DNA from: Callorhinchus milii
Taxonomy: Eukaryota
Reading direction: 5' to 3'
DNA length: 64,000 nucleotides
Assembly: GCF_018977255.1 (NCBI RefSeq)
Contig: NW_024704742.1
Span: 4,776,001-4,840,000 of the forward strand
This document shows, piece after piece, positions 7,871 through 60,943 of this stretch. The notes beneath the pieces were generated by a model, which saw only the letters and a program-made list of their open reading frames with translations, was not told where the DNA came from and made no database searches. A program made the translations under genes and the position numbers. Numbering within the stretch: position 1 is the stretch's first letter; each line of letters starts with the position of its first letter.

Positions 7871-8222
7871 GGAGTCCTGTAGCTCCTGTAGTGGTTAGAG
7901 CGCTCACCTCCCAAGCGAGAGACCTGGGTTCGATTCCCGGCCAGGGCGAAACTTTGCGCAAGTTTCCTTACTCCGCACGCCTGATAATAATCCCTCAAGA
8001 AATAAAAAAAATAATAATTTGGTCACTCAACCCACGACTGTCTATGGGACGCTACTGTGCGCAACTGGCTGCCGCGTTTCGCCCATAAAAATACATTCAA
8101 TTCACTTTACAGTCTATTCTGTGAAGCGCTTTGAGACGTCTATACAAATGTAATTTTGTTGTCGTCGTCTAGAAGGTGTGAAAAGTGCTACATCAAATGC
8201 AAGGATTATTATTATTATTATA
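7871..8222 (+). mobile_element. tRNA-derived SINE, short subfamily, full length
   Basis: A/B-box head, body ctgtgcgcaactggctgccgcgtttcgccc, L2-like tail and (ATT)n. Confidence 0.9.
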
Positions 8223-8560
8223 TTAATATGTCATGTTTAACACTGCACATCAGGATGACATGCTTCAGTGCCAGTAACTTATCAGTCTTTTTGATCAGTC
8301 TTTACTCCAGGCCTAGTTAAACTAGTTTTATTCCAATAAATGCTTCCTGCAGAGTGTGTTCTTTGTTGCTGATACCACAGAAGTTATACAAAAGCCAAGG
8401 ATTACAGCTGGGATCAGCTGCACCAAGCACACTGCCAGCTGCTAGGCTCAACTCTCAATTCCGCCCCAGAGGGAAGGTGAAATCATCGTGTTTGCAGCAC
8501 ACAGGGACGCAATTGGGTCCAAACTATTTTATTCCAAATAAAGGAATGAGGAGCCAACTC

Positions 8561-8750: not shown

Positions 8751-10644
8751 GGGTCTGGCCAATGAGCCAGGCTGGGCTGTGCTCCCATCAGCAGTCCAGA
8801 CTTGCTTGGCTCAGGGTGCGAGACCGCCACAGCGGGTGGGCTCAATTCTGACATTCTGTTGCTCCACCTTGGAGCCAGTTGCTTACGTCCCCCAACCTTA
8901 CCCCCGCCAGGAGAATAACAATCGAAACTTCACGACAACCAGCAAACATTACATGAGCAACCTTTTCGAGACTTTGCGGAGGATCCACTGCTGTCAGTAA
9001 AGTCTTGCGGTTTTAAACTTGTTGGAAGAGAAAGGATTGTTGAGGGAAACCTGATCATGTCTAAACTGGCTGTCGGTTACAAGGCTAAGGTTTTTGTACA
9101 GCTCTGTGTAGACACTTAGACTGGTGATTACACCTAAACACACCACAAACAGACAGGTAGAGAAAGCAATGATACACAGAGATACGCAACGTATGAAAGT
9201 AAGAAATCCAACACCAAAGAATCAAAGGAGACTTGGGTTGGGGGGGAAACAATAGAATACATGGAACAGTTTGGATTGACTTGAGATGATTTATTAGTAA
9301 CAATGACTACACTAAGTGTTCTCTGCGGAACGGGGATTTCCAGCTCGTGATTATTTATGAGAGACTGCCATCAAATTTCAGTGCAAGCAGCCACACGCTC
9401 CGTCTTCATCTGTAAGCTGCTTTGAATACCACAGATTCACCCTGAAATGCTTCACTATCAAAAAGAATTTTCCTACATTAGCAGCGGCTGACTGCCTACC
9501 TGAAAGGGCTTGGCGTTGTCAGCTAAAATGGGGCGCGGAAGAAAAAAAACTCTGAGCGCTTTGTCGGGGCTTAAGTAGAGGTTCTGAGCTGGGCTGCACG
9601 GGTGATAAGTGCCAACAGGGTGGGGGACTTGAAAAATTTCCGGGTTTCCCATATAGCCAGTGCACCTCTGTACATTAGTCACTGGTTTGAAATGTACATT
9701 AGAAGAACAGTTAACACATTCCTTTTGTAAATGAAGTGCCAGCAACCGCCTCCCCTGGGAATGCTGCTACTGGTTGTGGCTTCTAAATGCTATTGCAACT
9801 TCTTGATAGCAATTTCATGGTGCAAGTGGACGTGAATTTTAGATAAATGGCAAAATGTAGGAGAACTGGCGCTATCAAGTACCCTTTTCTGCCTTTGATT
9901 TGGATAAATTATCAGGGTGGTCCAACCCTTTGGCTGCTGAGGGCTGTTTGAGAAATGCCCACTGCAATATTTTTGTGTTTCCCTTCCAGAAACCTAACAT
10001 AAGTTAGGGTTACGGGTTATGGAGGGAGCAGGTGGGCCTGATGAAATGGAGGGGGAGAGGGCAGGGGGGGATAAGATCGACCTTAAACTATTGATTAAAA
10101 ATATGATGTTGTGCGAGCGTTGCTTCTGTTGAAGGAATCACTCAAACCGTGTAACTTTATTAATAACAATCATTTGTATTTGATACGGTGCCTTTCACGT
10201 CAGGAGGATGTCTCAAGCTGCCTTACATGATGTGTTGTAAAGTGCAGTCATTGTGTGTTTTCTAGGTGACATAGCAACCAACTTGCACACAAGACAGACA
10301 TGAAGTGACTAAGAAGAGATTATGATTTCTCCAGAAAGGGACTGTTGGCCCACACCAAGAGAAAAACTCCCTTTTTTTTTTCGAACGGTGCCATGGGATC
10401 TTTAACACCCACCTGAACAGGTAGGTGGGGCATGGGCTTAACATCTCATCCGATGGACAACACCTCTGACTTTATAGAAAGGCTGCTGAATATCAATTAG
10501 GCACGAAGCAGGAGTTGTTTCACACTTACCCACACTTTTCCCCATTTCGCCCACGAAATATACAGTCAATTCACTTTACAGTGTATCCTGTGAAGCGCTT
10601 TGAGACGTCTCGAAGACGTGATAAGACGCTGTATAATCCTAATA

Positions 10645-10954
10645 TAATAATAATCCTTGCATTTGATGTAGCGCTTTTCACGTCTTCGAGACGTCTCAAA
10701 GCGCTTCACAGAATACACTGTAAAGTGAATCGACTGTATATTTGTGGACGAAACGCGGCAGCCAATTGCGCACAGCAGCGTCCCACGAACAGTCGTGGAT
10801 TGAAGTGACCAACTTATTATTGTTTGTTTTCTTGAGGTATTATTATCGGGCGTGTGGAGTAAGGAAACTTGCCCAAGGTTTCGTCCTGCCGGGAATCATA
10901 CCCAGGTCTCTCGCTTGCCAGGTGAGTGCTCTAACCACTGACCTACAGGACTCC
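10645..10954 (-). mobile_element. tRNA-derived SINE, short subfamily, full length
   Basis: Reverse complement of the 31462-31775 copy, from (AAT)n tail to ctacaggactcc head. Confidence 0.9.
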
Positions 10955-25765: not shown

Positions 25766-28700
25766 GTAATCAGTCAAAACTTTATCATTTGTATCCTTTT
25801 GCTAATATGTGAAAGCTTTATTTTCCGCCTTTATTTTTGATTGATCAGAATGGTGGTTGAACAGCGAAACAATGTTCCATGGCTTAGAATCGATATACTT
25901 ATGTGCAAGGATCTATCTATGTTGGTATTAATATTCACAATTAAGAGCTAGGTATTAATATTGATAAATTTCAATCGATATTCCAGAGTCGTTACAGCAT
26001 TGCTCTTGTCCAATATACAACTTCAGATGCACATTATTTCTTGGTAAACATACAGTTATCAACGCCAGGGATATTTCAGTGTGAATATTGTAAGGTATCC
26101 AATATGGAAAATGTACTTTACAGTTCTGTTTCCACACTGACAGCCTCCATCAGCACCAGAACAAACTCAAAGCTACATAAAGGTGGCCATAAACTTTACA
26201 GCCAGCAGTATAAAAATATAATTTTCACCGCAACAATTACGCGTGTCATGCATGTGTGTGAATCTTTGAACCATATAATTTACAGTACAGAAGGCCGTTC
26301 GGCCCATCGTGTCAGTGCTGGCTCTTTTAAGAGCAATCCTTCAGGTCCATTTACCTGCCCTTTCCCTATACTCCTGTAGTTTACTCCATTTTAGATATCT
26401 TTCTAAATATCTATCCCATTTGAAAGCAAATATGGTCATAGGCCAAACTACCCAGCCTCGGTATCATCCGGGTAAACCTTTCCCCCCACTCTATTGCCTT
26501 GATGTCTTTTTTAAAGTAGGGAAATCGGATTTTGAGTGGGACGAAGGTAGCCTTCACCTGTGAGAAGTGTCTTGCTCTAGCTGTAGACTCCTAAGGAAAT
26601 TGAGTTTGAACCTCCTCAAGCCAGTTCCTGTGGACGTGAAACAAAATGCTTGTAAGTTGGCATTTATTCGAAGTTGAACTCACCGAGGCCTTAAGGTGAC
26701 TGGTGTTGAAGGGAAAGGGAAAATTGTTCTATGAGAACTTCATCCTTTTTATTAACGCTTTGTATGTGTGCTATGAAAGTCTCGCTTTGAAACTTTCCAA
26801 TCTATTTCCATTATTTTCAAATGGTTTAAATGGATTACGCATATTCATATAACACACACACACTATAATATATTATTTATGTTATAATATGTTAATATTT
26901 AACTTCTACAGAGCTGAGTTTTCATCATTGCTAAAAACGTACAACTGTTTTTATGAAGATAAGAAGAATTTGGAGCTGAAGGTTCATGAGGTAGGTAATC
27001 TTTGTAGATTGATTGGATATCCTGGACTATTTATTACTGAACTTCTATTAGTGGAAACATGTTCCTTTCCATGAGATAATAATAATAATAATAACAACAA
27101 TAATAATGATCCTTGAATTTGATATAGTGCCATATCACATCTTCAAGACATCTCAGAACCCTTCGCAGAACATGTTGTAGAGTGAATTGACTGTATCTTT
27201 CTTTGTTTCCAAAGGTGCCTGTTACATAAAAGTGGCATAAACTTTACAGCCAGCGGAGTAAAAATCTAGTTTTCACTACAACAATTATATGGACAAAGCG
27301 TGGCAGCTAATTGCACACAGCAGTCTCCCACAAACAGTCATGGATTGAGTGACCAAATTATTTTATTTTTTTGAAGGAATTATTATTACCCCCGGAAAAG
27401 CGATCCGCCAATCGACTAACAACCGGGTTCCTACTTACTGGTCGGTAAACAGAGGCGTGTGGAGTAAGGAAACTTGCCCAACATTTCGCCCCCTGCCCGG
27501 GAATCGAACCCAGGTCTCTCGCTTGCGAGGCGAGTGCTAAGGTGCTATGTCAATCGCAAAGAGTGTTAAACGTTATAAAATGCAAGTGTGTTTGTACTTT
27601 CGTTCTTTGAGAAGGAAGAATGTGAAAAGAATGGTATAACTTCTTGTTTAGGTTCTTTACACGTGACACTATTTCTTCTGCAGGACAAAGGAAAAATAGT
27701 CATAGAGGGGCTATTAGATATTTCATGGGGTATACACCAGCCAATAAGATTACAAATTGATGACGAGAAATTATCAGCATCACCCAGCCCGTTGCAACCT
27801 CCAACAGAACCCTTCAACAAGGCAAGGTAAGCAAATTATAGTGAAGAGAATGCAACAACCTTTCAACAGCTGTGTGCATTTTTCCTTGCCAACTTTTTCT
27901 CGTTTCAGTGGAAGCTGCTGTATTTTAACAGCCCAGAGTCCTGGCAACCTGTTCCAGTTTTTTTTACTTGTTCAGTTCCTCTGAGATGTCTCCTTTTAAG
28001 ACCGAAGAGCCCTAACTCGTCTAATCATTCCTCGTAGTTCATTCCTCTAACATTGGAGATTATCCTGTTGTTGCTCTCTTCTGTACTGCCTCCAGGGCCT
28101 GTGCTATATCCTGGATCAAAATTGTTTATAAATGTACCTTCCTCCCCACCGAACAAATAAACAAACACATACTCAGGCTTTCCTGCTAGCTGTAATATGT
28201 TAATACAAGCCCAGTAGTAAAGCCATGATTTTTTTTTGCAGTGGAATGACTCGATGGGGCGAGTTTGATGATCTGTGCAAAATTGTTGAACAGGAAGAAG
28301 AACACGAACCTTTGGAAACAGAGAAAATCCAAGACATGGGTAACTTGCCAAAAGTTCAGGGCACTATATGTTGGAAAGAGCAGAAACAAAACACATACCT
28401 GAAAGAAAGAAACACTAAATACACACCAGTTACATTTAGTTCGTCAACTGTATTGGGGGGAAAAGAATAAATGTAAGTCACGCTTTCGAGTGCTTTAATA
28501 TTATCTGTTTTGGGAGAAATTGTGGTATGTGATATAATTAGCACACTGATAACTATCACATAGACAAAATGCATATAATGCTTAAAATCTGTCTTTACGA
28601 ATAGACTGAATACCATCCCCTCCCTTCTGCAGAATGGTTTAACTCACAGTACTCTACAGGTCCACAATCTGTAGTATAGGGTATGGGGAAAAGGCAGGTA

Positions 28701-31700
28701 AATAGGACTGAAAAGATCCAGCAAAGACACAATGAGCCAAATGGCCTTTTCTGTGCTGTAAATTTCTATAACTATAGTCGGTGGGGGTGAGTGGGGGGAG
28801 GAGAGAGTCCAGTCCCAGATTTGTGGCCAAGGATAGGTTTTAAGACAATGGTTTAACTGCATGTTTTTAAATTCAAGTGATAATTGTTCCGTAACATATA
28901 GCATTCCACTCTTCCCTTCCCCCCCTCCATCTAATGATCCTACTCTATTGGAAGAGCGAATGAAAGATGCCAACCAACTGAGAAGCAGTTGGAAACCTAA
29001 CATGTAAGATTTAGAATTGAATGACGTGCAAGGCACAATTTCCTCACTGTTTCCTCTCCCCCATCTCTATTTAACCTTCAGTGTATGAGAGTAGTACGTT
29101 AAAGCCGAAACGCTATCGAGAACCAGAAAATTTCAACTTAATACGTTCCATGAGCGAAGTAGCGTTGGTGAAGATGAGAGTGAAGAGCCAAGCCAAACTT
29201 GCAGCACAGAAAGCTCAGCGCCATAGGTTTTCAATTAACGGACACTTCTACAACTATAAGGTGAGCGTGAAAAAAACAATAATTAAATTGGTCATTTTCA
29301 ATGTCTGTGGGACATTGCTGTGCGCAATTGGCTGCCGCGTTCGCCCACAAATATACAGTCAATTCACTTTACAGTGTGTTCTGTGAAGCACTTTGGGACG
29401 TCCTCCCGACGTGAAAGCGCTATATCAAATGCAAGGATTATTATTATTAAGGAGAAGTGCGATGACCCTCCACAGAGCATAACAGAGAGAGTTTGTGATG
29501 TAACGTGAGGACATGACTTGTACCTTAAAGTAGTCTTTCCAAAGCGTAAAGCAACATATCTTGTAACAAAGCTTAGTATCATCAGAAATGTTATGTTCTC
29601 CTGTAGCTCAGTGGTTGGAGCACTCGCCTTGCAAGCGAGAGACCTGGGTTCGATTCCCAGCAGGACAAAATGTTGGGGAAGTTTCCTTACTCCACACGCC
29701 TCTGTTTTCCTAGCAGTAAGTAGGAACCCAGTTGTTAGTCGATTGGCGGGATCGCTTTTCCGGGGGTAATAATTTCTTCAAAAAAAATTAATAACAATGA
29801 TAATAAATCGGCCACTTCAATCCACGACTGTTTGTGGGACGCTGCTGTGCGCAATTGGCTGCCGCGTTTTCCCCACAAAGTATACGGTCAATTCACTTTG
29901 CAGTATATTCTGTGAAGCGCTTTGAGACGTCTCGAAGACGTGATAAGGAGCTACATCAAATGCAAGGATTATTATTATCAGGTACAAATAGTTTGAACAG
30001 CTATGGACCCAGAAGAGTCTTGTTCTAGCATTAGATGGTTTGCAATTTTGATCTTCATAAAGCCAAAGTCATTACTCCAGTATTAGGGACAGAGAAACAC
30101 ATGTAACCACCAGAATTCAGCTGCTCAGTAGACGAGCAGGGATTGGTACCTACCCACCAGAACAAGAGAGGATATGATTTTTTGTATTTTAAAGAAAACG
30201 GATCCCTGTTCCCGAGAACGGGTTCTTTAACTCCCAATGTCTTATACATCTATAGTCTTGGTGCTCCAACAAAAACAGTGGTGTGAAAGCAAGCGAGGAA
30301 GACAAAGTGCCACTTAGACTAGTTCCTCGATGTAGTCTGCACCTTGTCACCTGATGATAATAAATGCCAAAGGAATTTATTTTAATGTGAAGTACTAACT
30401 CTCTTTTGTCTCTTAGAACCTGATATGTCTGCGAACAAACAGAAACCCTTGAAACCTCAGTTATTGGGAGTCTAAACATAGAATCTACTGCCATATAAAA
30501 GATAGGAAATGTTAGGAGATGCGAAACTGTTATTCACAACTCATTGCGCTTAAATGTGTTGGCAATCTGTCTCACCCTTGCTCATTATAAATCTTACTCT
30601 GCTTCTCATGTTGACAGCTCCCGAACAGCAAATGACTTCTCGCTTTCTTGACCACATTTTGCTGTGTCGGCGGATACCAGTTTACGGTGCATGTTCAGGA
30701 TGCGTTAAAACTTTGAATAATTATTGTGTGAAAATGAGCTTTCCGGTGAACATGTGAAGACTGGAACAGACATTAATTTGGGCCTCTGGGAACTATGTGA
30801 CTCGAAATTCCACCTAATCTCAGTCCTAACCTGACCATTTTGTCTTAAAGTTTGTGCAGTATTGTGGAAAAGTCTTGAATTCAAGTTTTACTTTGAAAGC
30901 CTGCCTTCTCTGCCAGTGCAAAGAGAAATTTGAAACCTTCCTTTAAATGTTTAAAGAGTTCTCAGGGTTCAGTTGGACTGCCTTCAATTGTAAACAGTAG
31001 TTAACAGAACAGGCAGCTCTTGAGAAAGATTACGTGTAATACACAGAAATTCAGAAATCAGTGATTGGAAAAAACCATTGATACATTTTATGCAAACTTC
31101 ACTTTTTAATAATGATAATTCTTGCATTTGATATAGCTCCTTATCATTGAGACATCTCAAAGTGCTTCACAGGATATCCTGTAAGCAGTGTGACTGTATT
31201 TCAAGGTTAACGCAGCAGCCAATTTGCCCAGAGCAATGTCCCACAAATAACCAAGAAGTAAATGACCAATTTATTAAATGCAGTGCAAGTGTCAAACCGG
31301 TTCCTGCAGAAGAGCTGCAGTTATGAGCTATAAATAAGAATGATCCTTAGATTTCTTATAGCACCTTTCACATCAGGAGGTGCGTCCGAAAATGCTTCAC
31401 GGTAGATACTGTACAATCTTGTATGATTTGTGGGCAATGTGGCCGGCAGTTTGTGCAAAGCAGTCCTGTAGCTCAGTGGTTAGAGCGCTCGCCTCGCAAG
31501 CAAGAGACCTGCGTTCGATTCCCGGCAGAGCGAAACCTTGGGCAAGTTTCTTTACTCCACATGCCTGATAATAATCCCTCAAGAAAAATAATAATACAAT
31601 AATAAAATTGGTCACTTCAATCCAAGACTATTCGTGGGGACACTGCTGTGTGCTCTGCTGCGTTTCACCCACAAATATACAGTCAATTCATTTTACAGTA

Positions 31701-34700
31701 TATTCTGTGATGCGCTTTGAGACGTCTCGAAGACATGAAAAGTGCTATATCAAATGCAAGGATTATTATTATAATAAAGTAAATTAAATCTCATTAAGTG
31801 GTAGCCTGACTACCTGATGTGTCAGGCTGGCCAAATCCCTTACTGTCCAGCGCCTTGGGACGTCCTCCTGACGTGAAAGGCACTCTACAAATGTAATTTG
31901 TTGTTGTTGTTGTAAACAGCATTGAGTTGAATGACCAATTTTATTTGGGGAATTGTTGGCCAGAAGCTGCCTTCTGTTTTCGAATAGTGTCATGGGATCT
32001 TTAATGTTCCACCTGAACAGGCAGATGGGGCCTCAGGAATGTGAGGACAATTGCTGGGATACCATACCGTAATTAATTGGTCGGACTTTGTTTGACGACT
32101 AACACTGAGAAACTACAGAAATTCTACAACATAGACAATTCGTTTTATCTGAATGCTGGTCCTAATAATAATAAGAATAATATAATAATCCTTGCATTTG
32201 GTGTGGTGCTTTGGACATCCCAAAGTGCTTCACAGGATCTTTTGCTGAGAAATGGAGTGACTGTGTATCTGTAGGCCAACACGCCAGCCCAATAACACAC
32301 AGCAATGTTCCACAAACAGCCATGTAACGAATGACCAATTTTATTTGGGAGATTGTTGGCCAGGACACCAGTGGAAACTCCTTTCTCTTTTTGAATAGTA
32401 CCATGTGATCTTTAACGTCCACCTTAACAGGCAGACTGCACCTTGGTTTAACGTCTCATGCGCAGGTCAACATGTCCGGCAATGTAACCCCACTCCCCCA
32501 CACCCCCCAACCCCAGCCCTAATCAGTTTAGATTATGTGAGGTCAAGTCTCGACTTGGGGCTTGAACCCACAACTTTTTTGACTCAGAGGCGAGAGTGCT
32601 ACCACTGCGCCGGGCTGGCAATGTTTCATGTGACACGCACTCATGTGATTTTGATTATCAGATTGTTGTTTATTGCAGAATATTACTGTCGTACCTTCTG
32701 TTGTAAAACGCTGGAGGAATGTAAAAATATTGGCTTTATGTTTTTGCAGACAGCTGTCTTCACGCCAACCTATGGCTCTGTGACCAATGTAAGAATCAAC
32801 AGCACAATGACAACCCAGGAAGTAATAGAGCAACTTCTACAGAAATTTAAGGTGACTTGCTTAGTTTTACCTTGTGCATGTATAGATGTTAGTAAGATAC
32901 TTGTGCTTACAGTGGCACAAACGCCAGGAGCAGATTCTAATTTGCTCCAAGACTTGGAACCCCTTACGGCTGAAATGGGATTGAGAAAGGAAAGGAACAG
33001 TATTTTTAAATGTGGCAAGGCAGCAGAACGAGAGGGCGCGTGTTTAGGGTATTTAAAGATTGGAACTGGTTACTAAGAAGAGTAGTTGAGGCCAAAACCT
33101 GGACTCATTTAAAACAGCTTGTGCTGTGATGGGTGGACTTTAGAGTTGGGTATTCTAGAATGAGATCAGATGGGTCAAAACACTTTCTTCATCTGAACGG
33201 CTCTTGTGATTTAGCAATAGCTTTTCCTGTTAAACAGCAAATATTGGTAAAAATTCTGCCTTTGTGGTAATTAGTGCCTGTGATGGTTATTGCACAGCAT
33301 GATTTAGCAACTGAATGCTCATTCAGATACAATTTTCACCCTATTCTGTACATAAATTATGACTGATAAACCAGGTGCTAATATAATATTGAGATTGCAG
33401 GAGTAGCAATAAATTCACACAATTTGGAAAAACTTAAATGTACTGAAACAACTACGTCTATGTTTTGTTTATCTTAATACAGTATTTGGCTGGTGATTCA
33501 TCCACAGCTACATAAAACATTTATGTTTGATATAGTTGAACCCGACTTCTTGATGTGATTTACAAGGGGTTCGCTGAAGACATTGCTCTTTATGTGCTTT
33601 TCTAGGGTCATTTCTACTGCTTTCCAATAAGTGCATTTTCAGCACTAACAGTCGTCAGTAGTACTATACAAAGCAATTTTGTGTGATACAATATGGGATT
33701 GAATAAAATCCATTTGATTTAGTTTGCTGTGATACATCTTCCCTTTCCCTACAGATAGAAAATGATCCTAATGAGTTTGCACTGTATGTCGTTCATGCCA
33801 CGGAAGGTAAGCTATCTAAAGGGTTTCTCCTTTTGTGTTTGGTTTGTTCTTCCTTTTAATATTGACCGTTAGAAATTACTTATCCATTTGTAGCTGGAAA
33901 CAGTAATACAAAACTAAACACCAATTGGCTCAGTAAGTAGGACACTTGCCTTTGAGTCAGAAAATTGTGCAATCCAGCCCTATATCATGAGACCTCATAG
34001 TCCAAGCTGACACTTGGTGCAGCACATGGGTGTCCGACTGATAAAAGAGGTTTTAACTGGACAATAAAGACCTCATGACACTATTCAAAAGAGAAGGATA
34101 TTGTCCTGGCCACAATCTTCCTGCTAAAATTACTCAATAACTTCATGGCTGTTTGTGGGACTTTGTTGTGCGTAAACTGATTCATTTGCCTACAAATGCA
34201 GGCTTTACATCTGACAACAATTCCATATTAAGTTATAGTGCGTTGAGGCACTATATTACATGCAAGTATTTGATATCAACTAAATTTAAGAATTTACTGC
34301 AATTTTTCTCCATCTTAAACGTTAAGACAAAATGGTCTCACAGGCTAAGACGGGATACAAGTTTAGGTCTCAAGTGAGCGGTGATATTGTTGGAGCGTGA
34401 AAGGGCAAATGTCAAAGTCACGTGTGCTACATCTCATCAAATTGTATGGATTTATGGTCTTTTACTTTACAGAAAAGAAAAGGCTTAATGATACAGCATT
34501 CCCACTCTGGGAAAGGCTGCTTCATGGACCATCAGGGAAAATTGTGAAAATATTCCTAATGGACAAGGGTGCAGAAGAAATTAGCAATGCTGTGAGGTTT
34601 TTTTTATATATGAACGTACATTTTAAAGTTTGCCATTAAGAAGGTTTTTATTCTCACTCTAGAATATTATTACTTTCAACAGGTGGCTCAGTATATCAAG

Positions 34701-36568: not shown

Positions 36569-36942
36569 AGTCCTATAGTAGTTAGAGCACTCGCCTCACA
36601 AGCAAGAGGACCTGGGTTTGATTCTCATTAGGGCAAAACATTGGGCACGTTTCCTTAATCCACACGCATCTGTTCACCTAGCAGTAAGTAGGAACCTGGT
36701 TATTAGTTGATTGGAGGATCACTTTTCCGGGGCTAATAATCCCTTTCCAAAAAATTACAATAATAACTCGGTCACTCAATCCACGACTGTTTGTGGGGAC
36801 GCTGCTGTGCGCAATTGGCTGCTGCGTTTTGCCCACAAAATACACAGTCAATTCACTTTATAGTATATTCTGTGAAGCGCTTTGAGACATCTCGAAGATG
36901 TGCTAAGGCGCTATAACAATTGCAAGGATTATTATTATTATT
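36569..36942 (+). mobile_element. tRNA-derived SINE, long subfamily, ~570 nt downstream of the RASSF6 stop
   Basis: Head, middle segment ctgttcacctagcagtaagtaggaacc, body and (ATT)n tail. Confidence 0.9.
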
Positions 36943-39179
36943 TTATTTGTTAACCTGGATTCCTTAGTTAGGAGTATGAGTCACACAAGTTGTGTCACAA
37001 GTTATGTCACACAGAAACTCGACTCTGCTGCAGTCGACTTCTAGAGAAGAGTTCCCACAGATTGATGGTAATTCTAACAGCATTCTTTTAAGAAATCCAG
37101 TTTATGCAATACTGCAAATCAGTTCCCTCTCCCACAATGTGACAACTGAATACAGGGTGTGAAATTAAATCAGAATCAGCAAATATGGATTATATTTCAT
37201 CTCGCATGTAAACAAGTGCCCTTGAAACTGATGTTTTATTAATCTCTATTGTTCTGACTTTGTAAGGAGACTTGTTTGTCCCTTCATGTATTTTGTTTCC
37301 CATTTAAAATGAGTGGGAAAATCACAGGAACATTTTCCAATTCGGTAAGCATGAAGCTTTTCAGCCCTGCTTGTTTACCTCTCATTGTTTTAGATGAGAG
37401 AGATGAATTGAATACAATTGTGACCCTAATGTTACTATTGAATTAGTCGCTGTTTATTATTCTTTTTCTGTTGATATTATATTCTGTTTATTTTGCTATA
37501 TTTGTGATCTGGACAAATTAAGTTTCTGTTAACCTGCTCCGAGATACAGAACCTATGAATTGCCGTTTCTGGATCAAGCTTCACTATTTATGGAAGCCGT
37601 ATTCCATTTGCTGAGTTTTGCAGCCTATGCATTTAATAATAAAAAATGTAAAGAAGAAACAAACATCCGTTGTTAATTTATTAAGCATACAATGGAAGCC
37701 CATTCTGATGGGTTGGTCCTCTGATCCACTTAAAGTCTGCATTCATGGTTATTTCTGTGATATTATACATTTGTATTCCAATAACTGGTTACGATGAGCT
37801 TCGTGTGAATTCCTGCTGGTTGGTAAAGTTACCTGCTTTGCCAGCCGTGCAGTTATAATGAAGAAATTTCTTTACAAGTGCACACCTCCAAAGTCAGTTT
37901 TTTCTCTCTTGCAATAAAGATTAGTGTAACTTGGATCTTTCTAGGCTCCGACTCGCAATGTTGCAGGAATAGTTGGTGCGATCAACCTGTGAACAAGAGC
38001 TGGTCACTAAATCCGTTACTACAGAAACAATCAGGAGCAGAATTTCTTCAATGTAGCAGTGTTCCCACATGTACAGAGGTAATACAATTGCCTCTAGAGC
38101 CCCATCAAGGAATATAAAAATAATAATCCTTGTATTTGATATCACCCTTATCACGTCTTTGAGATGCTTCAAAGTGCTTCACAGGTTACACTGTAAAATT
38201 GTGTGACTGTATTTTGTGGGCAAACCCGGCAACCAATTTGCACACAGCAATGTTGCACAAACAGCTATGGCGTGAATGACCAATTTTATTGAGTGATTAT
38301 TGGCCAGGACAAGGGGATGAACTCCCTTCTCTTTTCGAATAGTGCCATGGGATCTTTAACGACCATCTGGACAGGCAGACGGGACCTTAGTTTAAGATCC
38401 CGGAATGCACAGACCTATTATAATATCAAGTGGTGTTATTCTCTATCGTTAGTACAATAGTATGTTTGTACGTTCATTAGTACTCCCCACCTTAAAAACC
38501 TGCCTTAAAACCCATCTTTCTGACTGCACTTTCGGCCACCATCCTGCTTGTGCCTGGAGGATGAACCGAGCAGGCAATGAGGGTAGAGGAACCTGCATAG
38601 CATGAGCCACTTAAGCAGCTTAGTCACACCAACCAATGTTATCAGTGTAATTGGGGAACCTCAGAAGTGGCACTGCATAAAGAAAATTACCCGTTTAGGT
38701 CCAACCCCTCGTTCACAGTGGCTGAGGGAATTTGCACCCAATAAGAATTAATCTGTCTGAAAGCAGATTAGTGCACTTGTTTAAGGTTGTTGAAACTCTG
38801 GGAGTTTTCTGTGATCTCCTAGTGAGTCTAAGCTTTCTGTGATCTATTTCCTAATGACCCCAAGCTACCCTTCACTCGGCCCTCACTATTAGTTGTACCT
38901 AATATCTGCCACCAAAGGGTGATCCAACACTTCAATACACACATAGATTGAGTATTACAAAGGGTTACTGCCTTTTCACATCTGTGACCAGAGTATCAAT
39001 CTGGGCCAGACCGCTTGAATGAAAGGCTGAATGAAAGTTTTGTTGTCTTCTCTCTCCTGACTTTGAATCCTCTTAACCTACGGGTGAAAACTGGTGATTC
39101 TTAGCAAATTTTCAACCCAAATCTTAGCCCGAAAGACTATTTTATCTTAAAATTTAAGATTGCACAAGATTGTCAAAGG

Positions 39180-39700: not shown

Positions 39701-40297
39701 AAAATTCAGTTTTAAATCGGAAGTTGGTTCTTTTTAAGAGTGCAAAAAACTGGCTTCCAAATTTAGATTAAATTTAAGAATTTTCCACAGTTCCATAATA
39801 ATATCTTAAAACAAAATTATCTAAACAGGCTGTAACTAAGGTGTATTTCAGGTCCTTGATATGTTAACTAAAAACTATGTCCAGCTTTGTGCTGCACAAG
39901 CTGAAGAAGCCCACAAGAAGGTTTACAATTTTCACCCGAAATTTCTAGTTGAACAGCTTCTACCACACAAAAGTGTTTATCGTCCTAGCAATGATACAAT
40001 GCTTTCATGGCACAAAGATATCTCAAAGGCCATAGAACATAAAGTATAATGACTCCGTATTTTGTAGGCAAAATGCAGTAATTAATTTGCACACAGCAAT
40101 GTTCCACAAAGAGCCAGGAAGTAGATGACCAATTCTATCTGGGAGATTGTTGGCCAGAATACTGGGAGAAACTACCTTCTTTTCAAATAGTGCCATGGGA
40201 TCTTTAACATCCACCTGAAAATGCAGACAGGATCTTGGTTTGACGTCTGACCACTGAAGAAACCAGTTTGTCTAAACCTTGATCATCATAGCTCATT

Positions 40298-40903
40298 CCT
40301 CATTTATCGTCCCTCCAAACCCTCCCCGGCCTTCATCTCTGACATCTCCGCCCTTCTAGCTTCCCTCTGCCTCTGCTCGTGTACTGTCCCGCACCAGACA
40401 CCGCGACCACATCACTCCCACCCTCGCTCGCCTCCACTGGCTCCCCATCCCCCAGAGGATCGAATTCAAGATCCTCATCCTCACCTACAAGGCCATTCAC
40501 GGCCTCGCTCCCTCCTACCTCTCCGACCTACTATCCCCCTACCTACCTGCCCGTACCCTCCGTTCCTCTGGCTCCGGTCTGCTCCACATCCCCCGCCCCA
40601 ACCGCCCTACCATCGGTGGCCGGCCTTCAGCCTCTCAGCCGAGCTCTGGAACTCCATCCCCCAGTGCCTTCGCCGCCTCCTCCCTTTCCTCCTTCAAGGC
40701 CGGTCTCAAGACCTTTCTCTTTGACCGTGCCTTCAGCTCCCCTCTCGACTCTCTCCCCCTCCTCGCCCCCTCCCTTCCCTCCCCTCACCCTGACCATTTC
40801 CCCAATGCTCGGTCCCGACCCAACTGTCCAGCGCCTTGGGACGTCCCCCCGACGTGAAAGGCGCTCTACAAATGGAATCTTGTTGTTGTTGTTGTTGCTG
40901 TTG
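40298..40903 (+). mobile_element. Internally deleted L2 copy (endonuclease piece fused to 3' end) with (TTG)n tail
   Basis: 40298-40378 matches the YRPPKPSP.F.SDIS.LL.SL.LCS segment of the large L2; 40379-40903 matches its last ~500 nt including the tail. Confidence 0.88.
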
Positions 40904-40924
40904 CTCTGATCGCCTCCGTATCCT

Positions 40925-41230
40925 CGGCAACTTCCAAGTTTCCTTACTTCGCACGCCTGTGTTCACCGAGCGGGAAAGAGGAACCGGGTTGCGAGTCAAC
41001 TGGCCGATCGCTTTTCCGGGGCTAATAATTCCTTTTAAAAGAAAATTGATCGCTTCGACCCACGGCCCTCTGCGGGGGCCGCCGCCGCGCGCAATCGGCT
41101 GCCGGGTTTTCGCCCACAAAATATACGGTCCATTCGCTTTACGGTCGAAGCGCTTCGAGACGTCTCGAAGACGCGATAAGGCGTTGTATCAAATACAAAG
41201 ATTATTGCCATTGTTGTTATTATTATTATT
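40925..41230 (+). mobile_element. tRNA-derived SINE, long subfamily, headless, GC-shifted copy at the CpG island edge
   Basis: Collinear with 29670-29978 and 56370-56655 but with many A/T to G/C differences. Confidence 0.88.
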
Positions 41231-41261
41231 GATCAGTGAAAGACCAGAGAGGGGCGTGTCC

Positions 41262-41467
41262 TTCTCTGTGACGTCAGCGCGTCGCCGCCCACATCGGTCC
41301 GGGAGAACCGACGGGCGCGCCCCTCTCTGTGACGTCAGCGCGTCGCCGCGCGCATCGGTCCGGGAGAACCGACGGGCGCGCCCCTCTCTGTGACGTCAGC
41401 GCGTCGCCGCGCGCATCGGTCCGGGAGAAAAGACGGGCCCGCTCCTCCCTGTGACGTCGGCGCGTCC
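41262..41467. repeat. 61-bp tandem repeat, about 3.4 copies, each carrying a CRE
   Basis: Unit ctctgTGACGTCAgcgcgtcgccgcgcgcatcggtccgggagaaccgacgggcgcgcccct; CRE starts at 41269, 41330, 41391 and 41452 (last is TGACGTCG), exact 61-nt spacing. Confidence 0.95.
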
Positions 41468-41575
41468 CGAAGACGGTTGATGAGCGCCGAGTCCGACCGT
41501 TGCTGCGCACGCGCAGTCCCCACCACCACAGCAAGTCACACACGGAGACGGCGGTCTCTCTCCCGCATCGCCGCC

Positions 41576-60943
<19,368 letters not shown>

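Follow-up and report, generated by a model that had tools for sequence, protein, structure and literature searches.

A local cluster of gained CpG sites in a SINE copy beside the FSD1L promoter of Callorhinchus milii

The window analysed here, a stretch of 64,000 nucleotides (64 kb) of Callorhinchus milii, carries the promoter, the first coding exon and a fibronectin-III exon of FSD1L (Table 1). The gene was identified as FSD1L because the exon at 59211-59423 is 100% identical to C. milii FSD1L; a Pfam search of the three exon-bearing frames gave no match, and the name was taken from the protein search instead. The promoter CpG island is densest over 41001-41500 (72 CpGs, observed/expected ratio (o/e) 1.57), which is the maximum of the window as well as the maximum upstream of a C-rich minisatellite. 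That minisatellite (41707-43088, FSD1L intron 1), with a 25-bp unit, about 47 copies and a GC skew of -0.9, forms the downstream border of the island. The preliminary description, made from the DNA letters alone, had placed a SINE copy at the edge of a CpG island, and this copy (hereafter the focal SINE) does lie inside the promoter island, of which it makes up the upstream half, 350-640 bp upstream of the FSD1L start codon. The island also holds a 61-bp tandem array, whose TGACGTC core we take to be CRE-like; compared with its unit 1, units 2 and 3 have two changes that add CpGs (unpolarised). Contigs of two relatives (organisms C and D) each match about 41237-41283 once with small gaps, thus the start of the first 61-bp unit is conserved among relatives.

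Table 1. Features of the FSD1L promoter region, its SINE copies and the neighbouring controls, numbered from the first letter of the window.
Feature	Position	Strand	Remarks
Older SINE copy	39977..40250	-	control without bias; about 700-950 bp further upstream
L2-type LINE 3' fragment	40297..40905	+	control; abuts focal SINE
Promoter CpG island	40891..41690	.	200-bp windows, GC>0.55 and CpG o/e>0.75
Focal SINE, CmiSINE type, longer variant	40935..41225	+	profile alignment; without tRNA head; 8-bp internal deletion near 41145
16 TpG/CpA>CpG gains	40951, 40972, 41052, 41057, 41067, 41073, 41083, 41086, 41088, 41096, 41127, 41136, 41143, 41146, 41156, 41174		
61-bp tandem array, 3.3 copies	41263..41466	+	TGACGTC core per unit; CpG o/e 1.44
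FSD1L first coding exon	41576..41590	+	encodes MDPQR, then GT donor; C. milii FSD1L protein starts MDPQR
FSD1L fibronectin-III exon	59211..59423	+	protein search: 100% to Callorhinchus milii FSD1L, at most 82% to sharks/rays
Three sister SINE copies quoted in the preliminary description	29596-29983, 36577-36947, 56291-56664		nhmmer

Members of the SINE family were collected with a profile built from seven near-complete sisters; nhmmer returned 45 hits in the window, 10 of which fell under 30 bits and were dropped, and the resulting 35 copies (the focal SINE, 19 young and 15 older copies, with the young/older split made by eye) were aligned. The family has two structural variants, since four copies (7871-8224, 10636-10954, 31460-31780 and 52735-52983) share a clean internal deletion of 61 bp relative to the longer variant, and the focal SINE, which starts at model position 85, carries this 61-bp segment. 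ARAGORN called the heads of sister copies as tRNA-Ala (four) and tRNA-Val (one), and an Rfam tRNA was found at six heads; the head at 29596-29669 scores 66 bits as a tRNA (tRNA-Ala, TGC), and such heads are prone to be miscalled as tRNA genes. Model positions 302-362 show a weak match to four L2 3' ends (E 2e-4 to 7e-4) and the tail is of TTA type, that is, an L2-like 3' tail with a simple repeat as in CmiSINE. Some structural oddities were also seen among the copies. A SINE at 27096-27538 (minus strand) has its 3' body split by some 85 bp of unrelated sequence, two inverted SINEs at 10541-10634 (plus) and 10636-10954 (minus) lie tail to tail and nearly abut, so that a fold-back is possible, and the truncated 5' end of a SINE carries an exact 18-bp tandem duplication (52720-52755), which a degenerate duplication at about 40921-40941 of the focal SINE resembles by eye.

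The C. milii genome size is taken here to be near 0.95 Gb, with sequencing runs of 885-963 million letters. With this size, the published copy numbers (PMC5499810) would give about 20 young and about 15 older copies in 64 kb, and 20 and 15 were found. CmiSINE (SINE2-1_CM/SINE2-1B_CM) was described with an Ala-tRNA head, an L2 tail, two close variants and 302,861 copies in C. milii, while SacSINE1-CM is an older family with 218,294 copies and 3' 160 bp in common with CmiSINE; their activity peaks were dated to about 105-163 million years ago on that study's own clock (PMC5499810). The family of the focal SINE matches CmiSINE, as assigned by description and not by alignment to the published consensus (figure/Repbase), in the L2-shared tail, the two close variants, the density and the presence of an older family sharing the 3' part, and, as far as the tRNA calls of the sisters go, in the Ala-tRNA head. 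The older copies of the window probably form this separate family (compare PMC5499810). Unlike typical members, the focal SINE is headless, and its CpG count is two to three times that of its sisters: it has GC 0.52, 32 CpGs and CpG o/e 1.63, against GC 0.40-0.43, 11-16 CpGs and o/e 0.87-1.16 in the three sisters of Table 1.

The preliminary description held that most differences between the focal SINE and its sisters run from A/T to G/C (weak to strong, W>S) and that many create CpG. All five changes it quoted were found in the alignment, and the statement was borne out by the counts. Against the consensus of the 19 young copies, with sisters scored leave-one-out and A-rich linker columns excluded, the focal SINE has 42 differences at 249 sites, comprising 30 W>S, 7 S>W, 5 S>S and no W>W changes, whereas in the 19 pooled sisters S>W changes (171) outnumber W>S changes (96; Fisher p 2e-7 for the contrast). 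The changes are thus not balanced once counted against the family consensus. When the counts were split by context (SINE tail excluded), however, the excess proved to lie almost wholly in CpG-creating transitions, and a general rewriting from A/T to G/C, as had been proposed, was not found. TpG or CpA became CpG at 16/32 sites in the focal SINE and at 16/383 in the sisters, a rate about 12 times theirs, while the other A/T transitions (7/97 vs 54/1141, p 0.32) and the non-CpG S>W transitions (6/83 vs 49/922, p 0.45) stay near the sisters' rates. Within the focal SINE itself, the contrast between 16/32 and 7/97 gives p 5e-7, and T>C changes on either strand depend on the 3' neighbour (G 16/32, A 2/29, C 2/27, T 3/39). 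The gains occurred on both strands (9/16 TG and 7/16 CA sites). None of the other 34 copies has more than two such gains, and chance was rejected as their source, the excess having p 2e-10 after multiplication by the 35 copies. CpG decay was observed at 1/32 positions, compared with 59/341 in the sisters (p 0.04), and three of the 32 CpG positions were struck by a transversion. Slightly raised W>S transversions (5/129 vs 18/1524) suggest some general GC bias, and S>W transversions number 0 in 115 sites.

The CpG specificity was examined further with a GpC mirror control, in which the raw excess of CpG-creating changes (15/31) over GpC-creating changes (8/31) is not significant (p 0.11). GTG sites create both dinucleotides; with these set apart, changes were found at 9/22 CpG-only and 2/22 GpC-only sites (p 0.034), at 7/10 sites creating both and at 5/70 creating neither (p 5e-4 vs CpG-only). 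Stricter consensus thresholds left 15/30 and 14/25 gains (at 0.85, 14/25 vs 8/315 in sisters), and the long variant alone as reference gave 15/30. The gain site 41146 adjoins the 8-bp deletion and is alignment-ambiguous; after removal of three doubtful sites, the contrast between CpG-creating and other transitions still has p 1e-5.

The two repeats upstream of the focal SINE served as controls for the extent of the signal. The older SINE has 6 W>S and 13 S>W changes, with CpG gains at 2/33 sites. The 3' end of the L2 fragment shows 0/11 TpG/CpA gains and three other W>S changes; its body has 17 W>S and 19 S>W changes against the L2 copies of the window, a comparison that is uninformative at 67-83% likeness, these copies probably belonging to other subfamilies. 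The fragment is probably a younger insertion, because it differs from the depth-majority at few sites among those listed, and it may have been inserted later at the SINE end where the tRNA head is missing. It is GC-rich, and its 5' part is, by eye, apparently an open reverse-transcriptase C-terminal stretch. The signal is thus limited to about 650 bp from the FSD1L start codon, though the L2 fragment may be too young to show it.

Models with the sister rates as baseline were then compared; their p values are optimistic, since sites are taken as independent and the baseline as exact. It had been argued that simple protection from CpG decay does not explain the pattern, and this was upheld: an unmethylated-only model was rejected in favour of a uniform GC bias (B about 1.5) with p 6e-5 to 3e-4, and the changes are most simply derived (see below). 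Uniform B is in turn outperformed once CpG sites receive a term of their own (p 6e-6), and this holds with the TpG mutation baseline doubled, which allows for back-decay in the sisters (p 1e-3). The fitted B is about 4-6 at CpG sites (5.8 in the base fit) and about 0.6 elsewhere; once the CpG term is included, the general GC term has p 0.15-0.17, so that a weak general bias (B about 0.6) is compatible with the data. The fitted age of the focal SINE is 1.8-2 times the sisters' divergence.

These results bear on the suggestion of strong GC-biased gene conversion (gBGC) at the promoter, of which one part stood, namely a derived W>S excess in a promoter island, while the context-blind form did not, the non-CpG transitions being near normal. 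Instead, we tentatively favour a CpG-preferring repair bias, by which T:G would be turned into C:G in meiotic heteroduplex at a promoter recombination site, as the driver of the gains. A CmiSINE copy would have been inserted at the upstream margin of the FSD1L promoter, coming within its unmethylated zone, where CpG loss would cease, as the single decay among 32 positions suggests. In a TpG/CpG heterozygote, recombination at this promoter could then place a T:G mismatch in CpG context within the heteroduplex, and CpG-preferring thymine glycosylases, presumably TDG/MBD4, could resolve it to C:G. T:G in CpG context is known as the preferred substrate of both enzymes (PMC4510005), and in somatic tissue of the elephant shark, transposable elements are hypermethylated and expressed transcription start sites hypomethylated (PMC5437953). 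Where PRDM9 is inactive, recombination falls by default on promoters; C. milii PRDM9 was reported to be without SSXRD, to have a slowly evolving zinc-finger array and to be undetected in testis expression (PMC5519329), whereas a later survey found it complete (PMC8892340). The gains are confined to transitions, with 0/43 for transversion routes of net CpG gain, as T:G-specific repair predicts. A higher gain rate after C/G (13/18) than after A/T (3/14, p 0.011) is unaccounted for by the T:G repair model.

Context-blind gBGC at the promoter, accompanied by lost methylation as in dogs, is an improbable alternative, under which the concentration at CpG would be a small-sample accident. It would account for the ratio of 30 to 7, for the better fit of uniform B than of the unmethylated-only model (p about 1e-4), for the mildly raised W>S transversions and for the absence of S>W transversions, and dog islands do gain GC by gBGC (PMC4350167, PMC3861134, PMC11323403). 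It is opposed by the contrast of CpG-creating with other transitions in the same copy, even without the doubtful sites, by the non-CpG S>W transitions, which are not lowered, and by the rejection of the uniform model (p 6e-6 to 1e-3).

A local mutation bias acting without recombination is comparably improbable. Here glycosylases would excise the correct T of replication-born T:G in TpG, and the CpG product would be kept unmethylated. Since the same enzymes acting on replication errors give the same spectrum, namely transitions in CpG context on both strands with other S>W changes not lowered, conversion and local mutation bias are inseparable from these counts; the preference of MBD4 and TDG for CpG context fits both (PMC4510005). 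However, the sisters have no TpG excess (16/383 vs 54/1141), so such a bias would need to operate in islands alone, and there with a 6- to 16-fold effect, and a literature search found no report of such a rate. In human islands, methylation of sperm DNA goes with a slightly higher TpG/CpA>CpG rate (PMC4417305).

Selection for more CpGs, with the SINE co-opted as an extension of the island, had also been raised in the preliminary description; it is mildly disfavoured and we consider it distinctly improbable. Such selection on CpG number could act via CXXC proteins that read CpG, or through a methylation boundary. The specificity of the excess for CpG creation, the rarity of decay (1/32) and the short distance to the start codon are what it would predict. 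On the other hand, transversion routes to CpG contributed nothing where 3-7 gains would be expected (2.8-7.1 under an 8- to 16-fold boost, P 0.054 to <0.001, on a baseline of few events), CpG positions were themselves struck by transversions (3/32), and the rest of the copy is unconserved, at 1.8-2 times the sisters' divergence.

The gained CpGs might instead have been present from the beginning, either because the focal SINE came from a minor CpG-rich source lineage or because ancestral CpGs were lost by the main source genes and the changes are wrongly polarised. Of the W>S changes, half exactly reverse CpG decay, and CpG sites are prone to polarisation errors that mimic this signal (PMC4510005). 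Nevertheless, we regard this explanation as very improbable. At 15 columns separating young from older copies, several of which are CpG decay sites themselves, the focal SINE agrees with the young copies at 13 and with the older ones at one, and has a gap at one. The older copies (n=15) cover 14 gain sites, and there they match the young copies in carrying TG, or CA, with CG rare and in one direction at each site, unlike most true CpG sites, where both decay products are present. Since young and older copies share TG/CA at these gain sites, the CpGs of the focal SINE would most simply be new, that is, derived. Trees of 22 copies, of low support, place the focal SINE among the young ones (bootstrap 64-75), which is a consistency check only.

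Contig depth in sequencing runs was also considered with respect to a source subfamily. Contigs of runs X15 and X16 (organism A, taken as C. milii) and of one run each of organisms C and D, four of 23 listed runs in all, were aligned at 85% likeness, where repeat copies swamp the alignment and summed depth does not equal copy number. Organisms C and D yielded no usable SINE orthologue at this likeness, though missing cover is uninformative there; an exact SINE-family motif had 0 matches in the metagenome contigs. Summed X15 depth is 6,888 over 41058-41105 against 522,397 over 41154-41201, the rewritten core thus reaching 1.3% of the tail. At 41143, which lies beside the focal SINE's own deletion, the non-family letter accounts for 33.5 of 638.8 depth units in X15 and 32.6 of 465.5 in X16, where single-copy contigs have 7-12. 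The depth at 41143 fits the focal copy plus a 4% background gain, so that only a large dispersed subfamily is argued against. The dispersed GC-rich subfamily that the preliminary description had named as a counter-case was therefore rejected in its large form, of which X15 and X16 show no sign; this is a weak test, with which a subfamily numbering between a few and some hundred copies, like the single diagnostic site in the older state, is compatible. In X14, the run of organism D, the non-family share at 41143 is 159 of 363 depth units, equal to roughly one contig; this may weakly hint at an orthologous SINE that carries the gain too. An assembly or sequencing artefact is scarcely credible: among the contig pieces listed none bridges the 16 gain sites, but the changes are dinucleotide-specific and on both strands, and 41177-41321, including the focal tail variants, is identical in the contigs of X15 and X16.

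Returning to the CpG-preferring repair bias that we favour, several known systems invite comparison. Promoter gBGC in canids after PRDM9 loss is alike in the W>S excess and the reduced CpG decay within a promoter island (PMC3861134, PMC4350167, PMC11323403), both of which were found in the focal SINE, and alike in that C. milii PRDM9, of disputed status, may not direct recombination. However, the dog signal persists without CpG-related sites (PMC3861134), while that of the focal SINE nearly vanishes. Because it lacks a similar bias outside CpG context, as the canid or bird type of promoter gBGC would have, the focal SINE was not filed as plain canid-type gBGC.

A closer likeness in spectrum is offered by the honeybee, in which gBGC is CpG-favouring and transition-biased, with CpG o/e near 1.6, and base-excision repair was suggested (PMC4406589). 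The focal SINE similarly favours CpG- over GpC-creating changes (9/22 vs 2/22, with the raw p of 0.11), gained CpGs by transitions only and has o/e 1.63. The honeybee case differs in being genome-wide, in a sparsely methylated insect, and based on allele frequencies, with a CpG:GpC ratio of 1.17 rising to 1.72 (PMC4406589), whereas here the effect is larger, local within a methylated vertebrate genome and read from fixed differences at one locus. Human CpG beacons, too, are clusters of CpGs that arose in one lineage within hypomethylated islands, where they exceed new GpCs and overlap gBGC tracts, but they were explained as gBGC plus protection from decay, and the available text does not claim a CpG-specific repair bias (PMC3469460). 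The focal SINE further resembles the excess in apes, including humans, where B of CpG transitions is about twice that of other transitions (10.1101/2020.09.25.313411), and conflicts with a human analysis in which gBGC was blind to CpG context and base excision repair was argued against (PMC4510005). No work on how substitutions are biased, or CpGs gained, at promoters of C. milii turned up in a literature search that largely lacked subscription papers, and the accessible portions of PMC12047795 and PMC13712754 hold nothing on CpG-specific bias.

Taken together, the focal SINE shows a real, derived and local CpG gain beside a promoter, apparently by a variant of a known process with unusually sharp CpG specificity, at one locus that was picked for its oddness and with small counts. 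The wider proposition, that a bias of repair or conversion specific to T:G in CpG, 6- to 16-fold above background and far exceeding any general GC bias, is at work in unmethylated elephant shark promoters and actively creates CpG islands there, is possible though we think it unlikely. The matter bears on whether gBGC originates from base-excision or mismatch repair, and on whether CpG islands are merely preserved by the lack of methylation or actively built. A known starting sequence, in which half of the TpG/CpA sites became CpG and little else changed, separates these models. If the CpG specificity fades in pooled data, the focal locus would represent ordinary promoter gBGC. If the wider proposition is true, C. 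milii would depart, as a vertebrate, from the human finding that gBGC ignores CpG context, and the roughly 300,000 CmiSINE copies, with their one known start sequence, would form a genome-wide assay of the selection-free origin of CpG islands. A pooled CmiSINE analysis would also hint at the sites of recombination in a cartilaginous fish with doubtful PRDM9.
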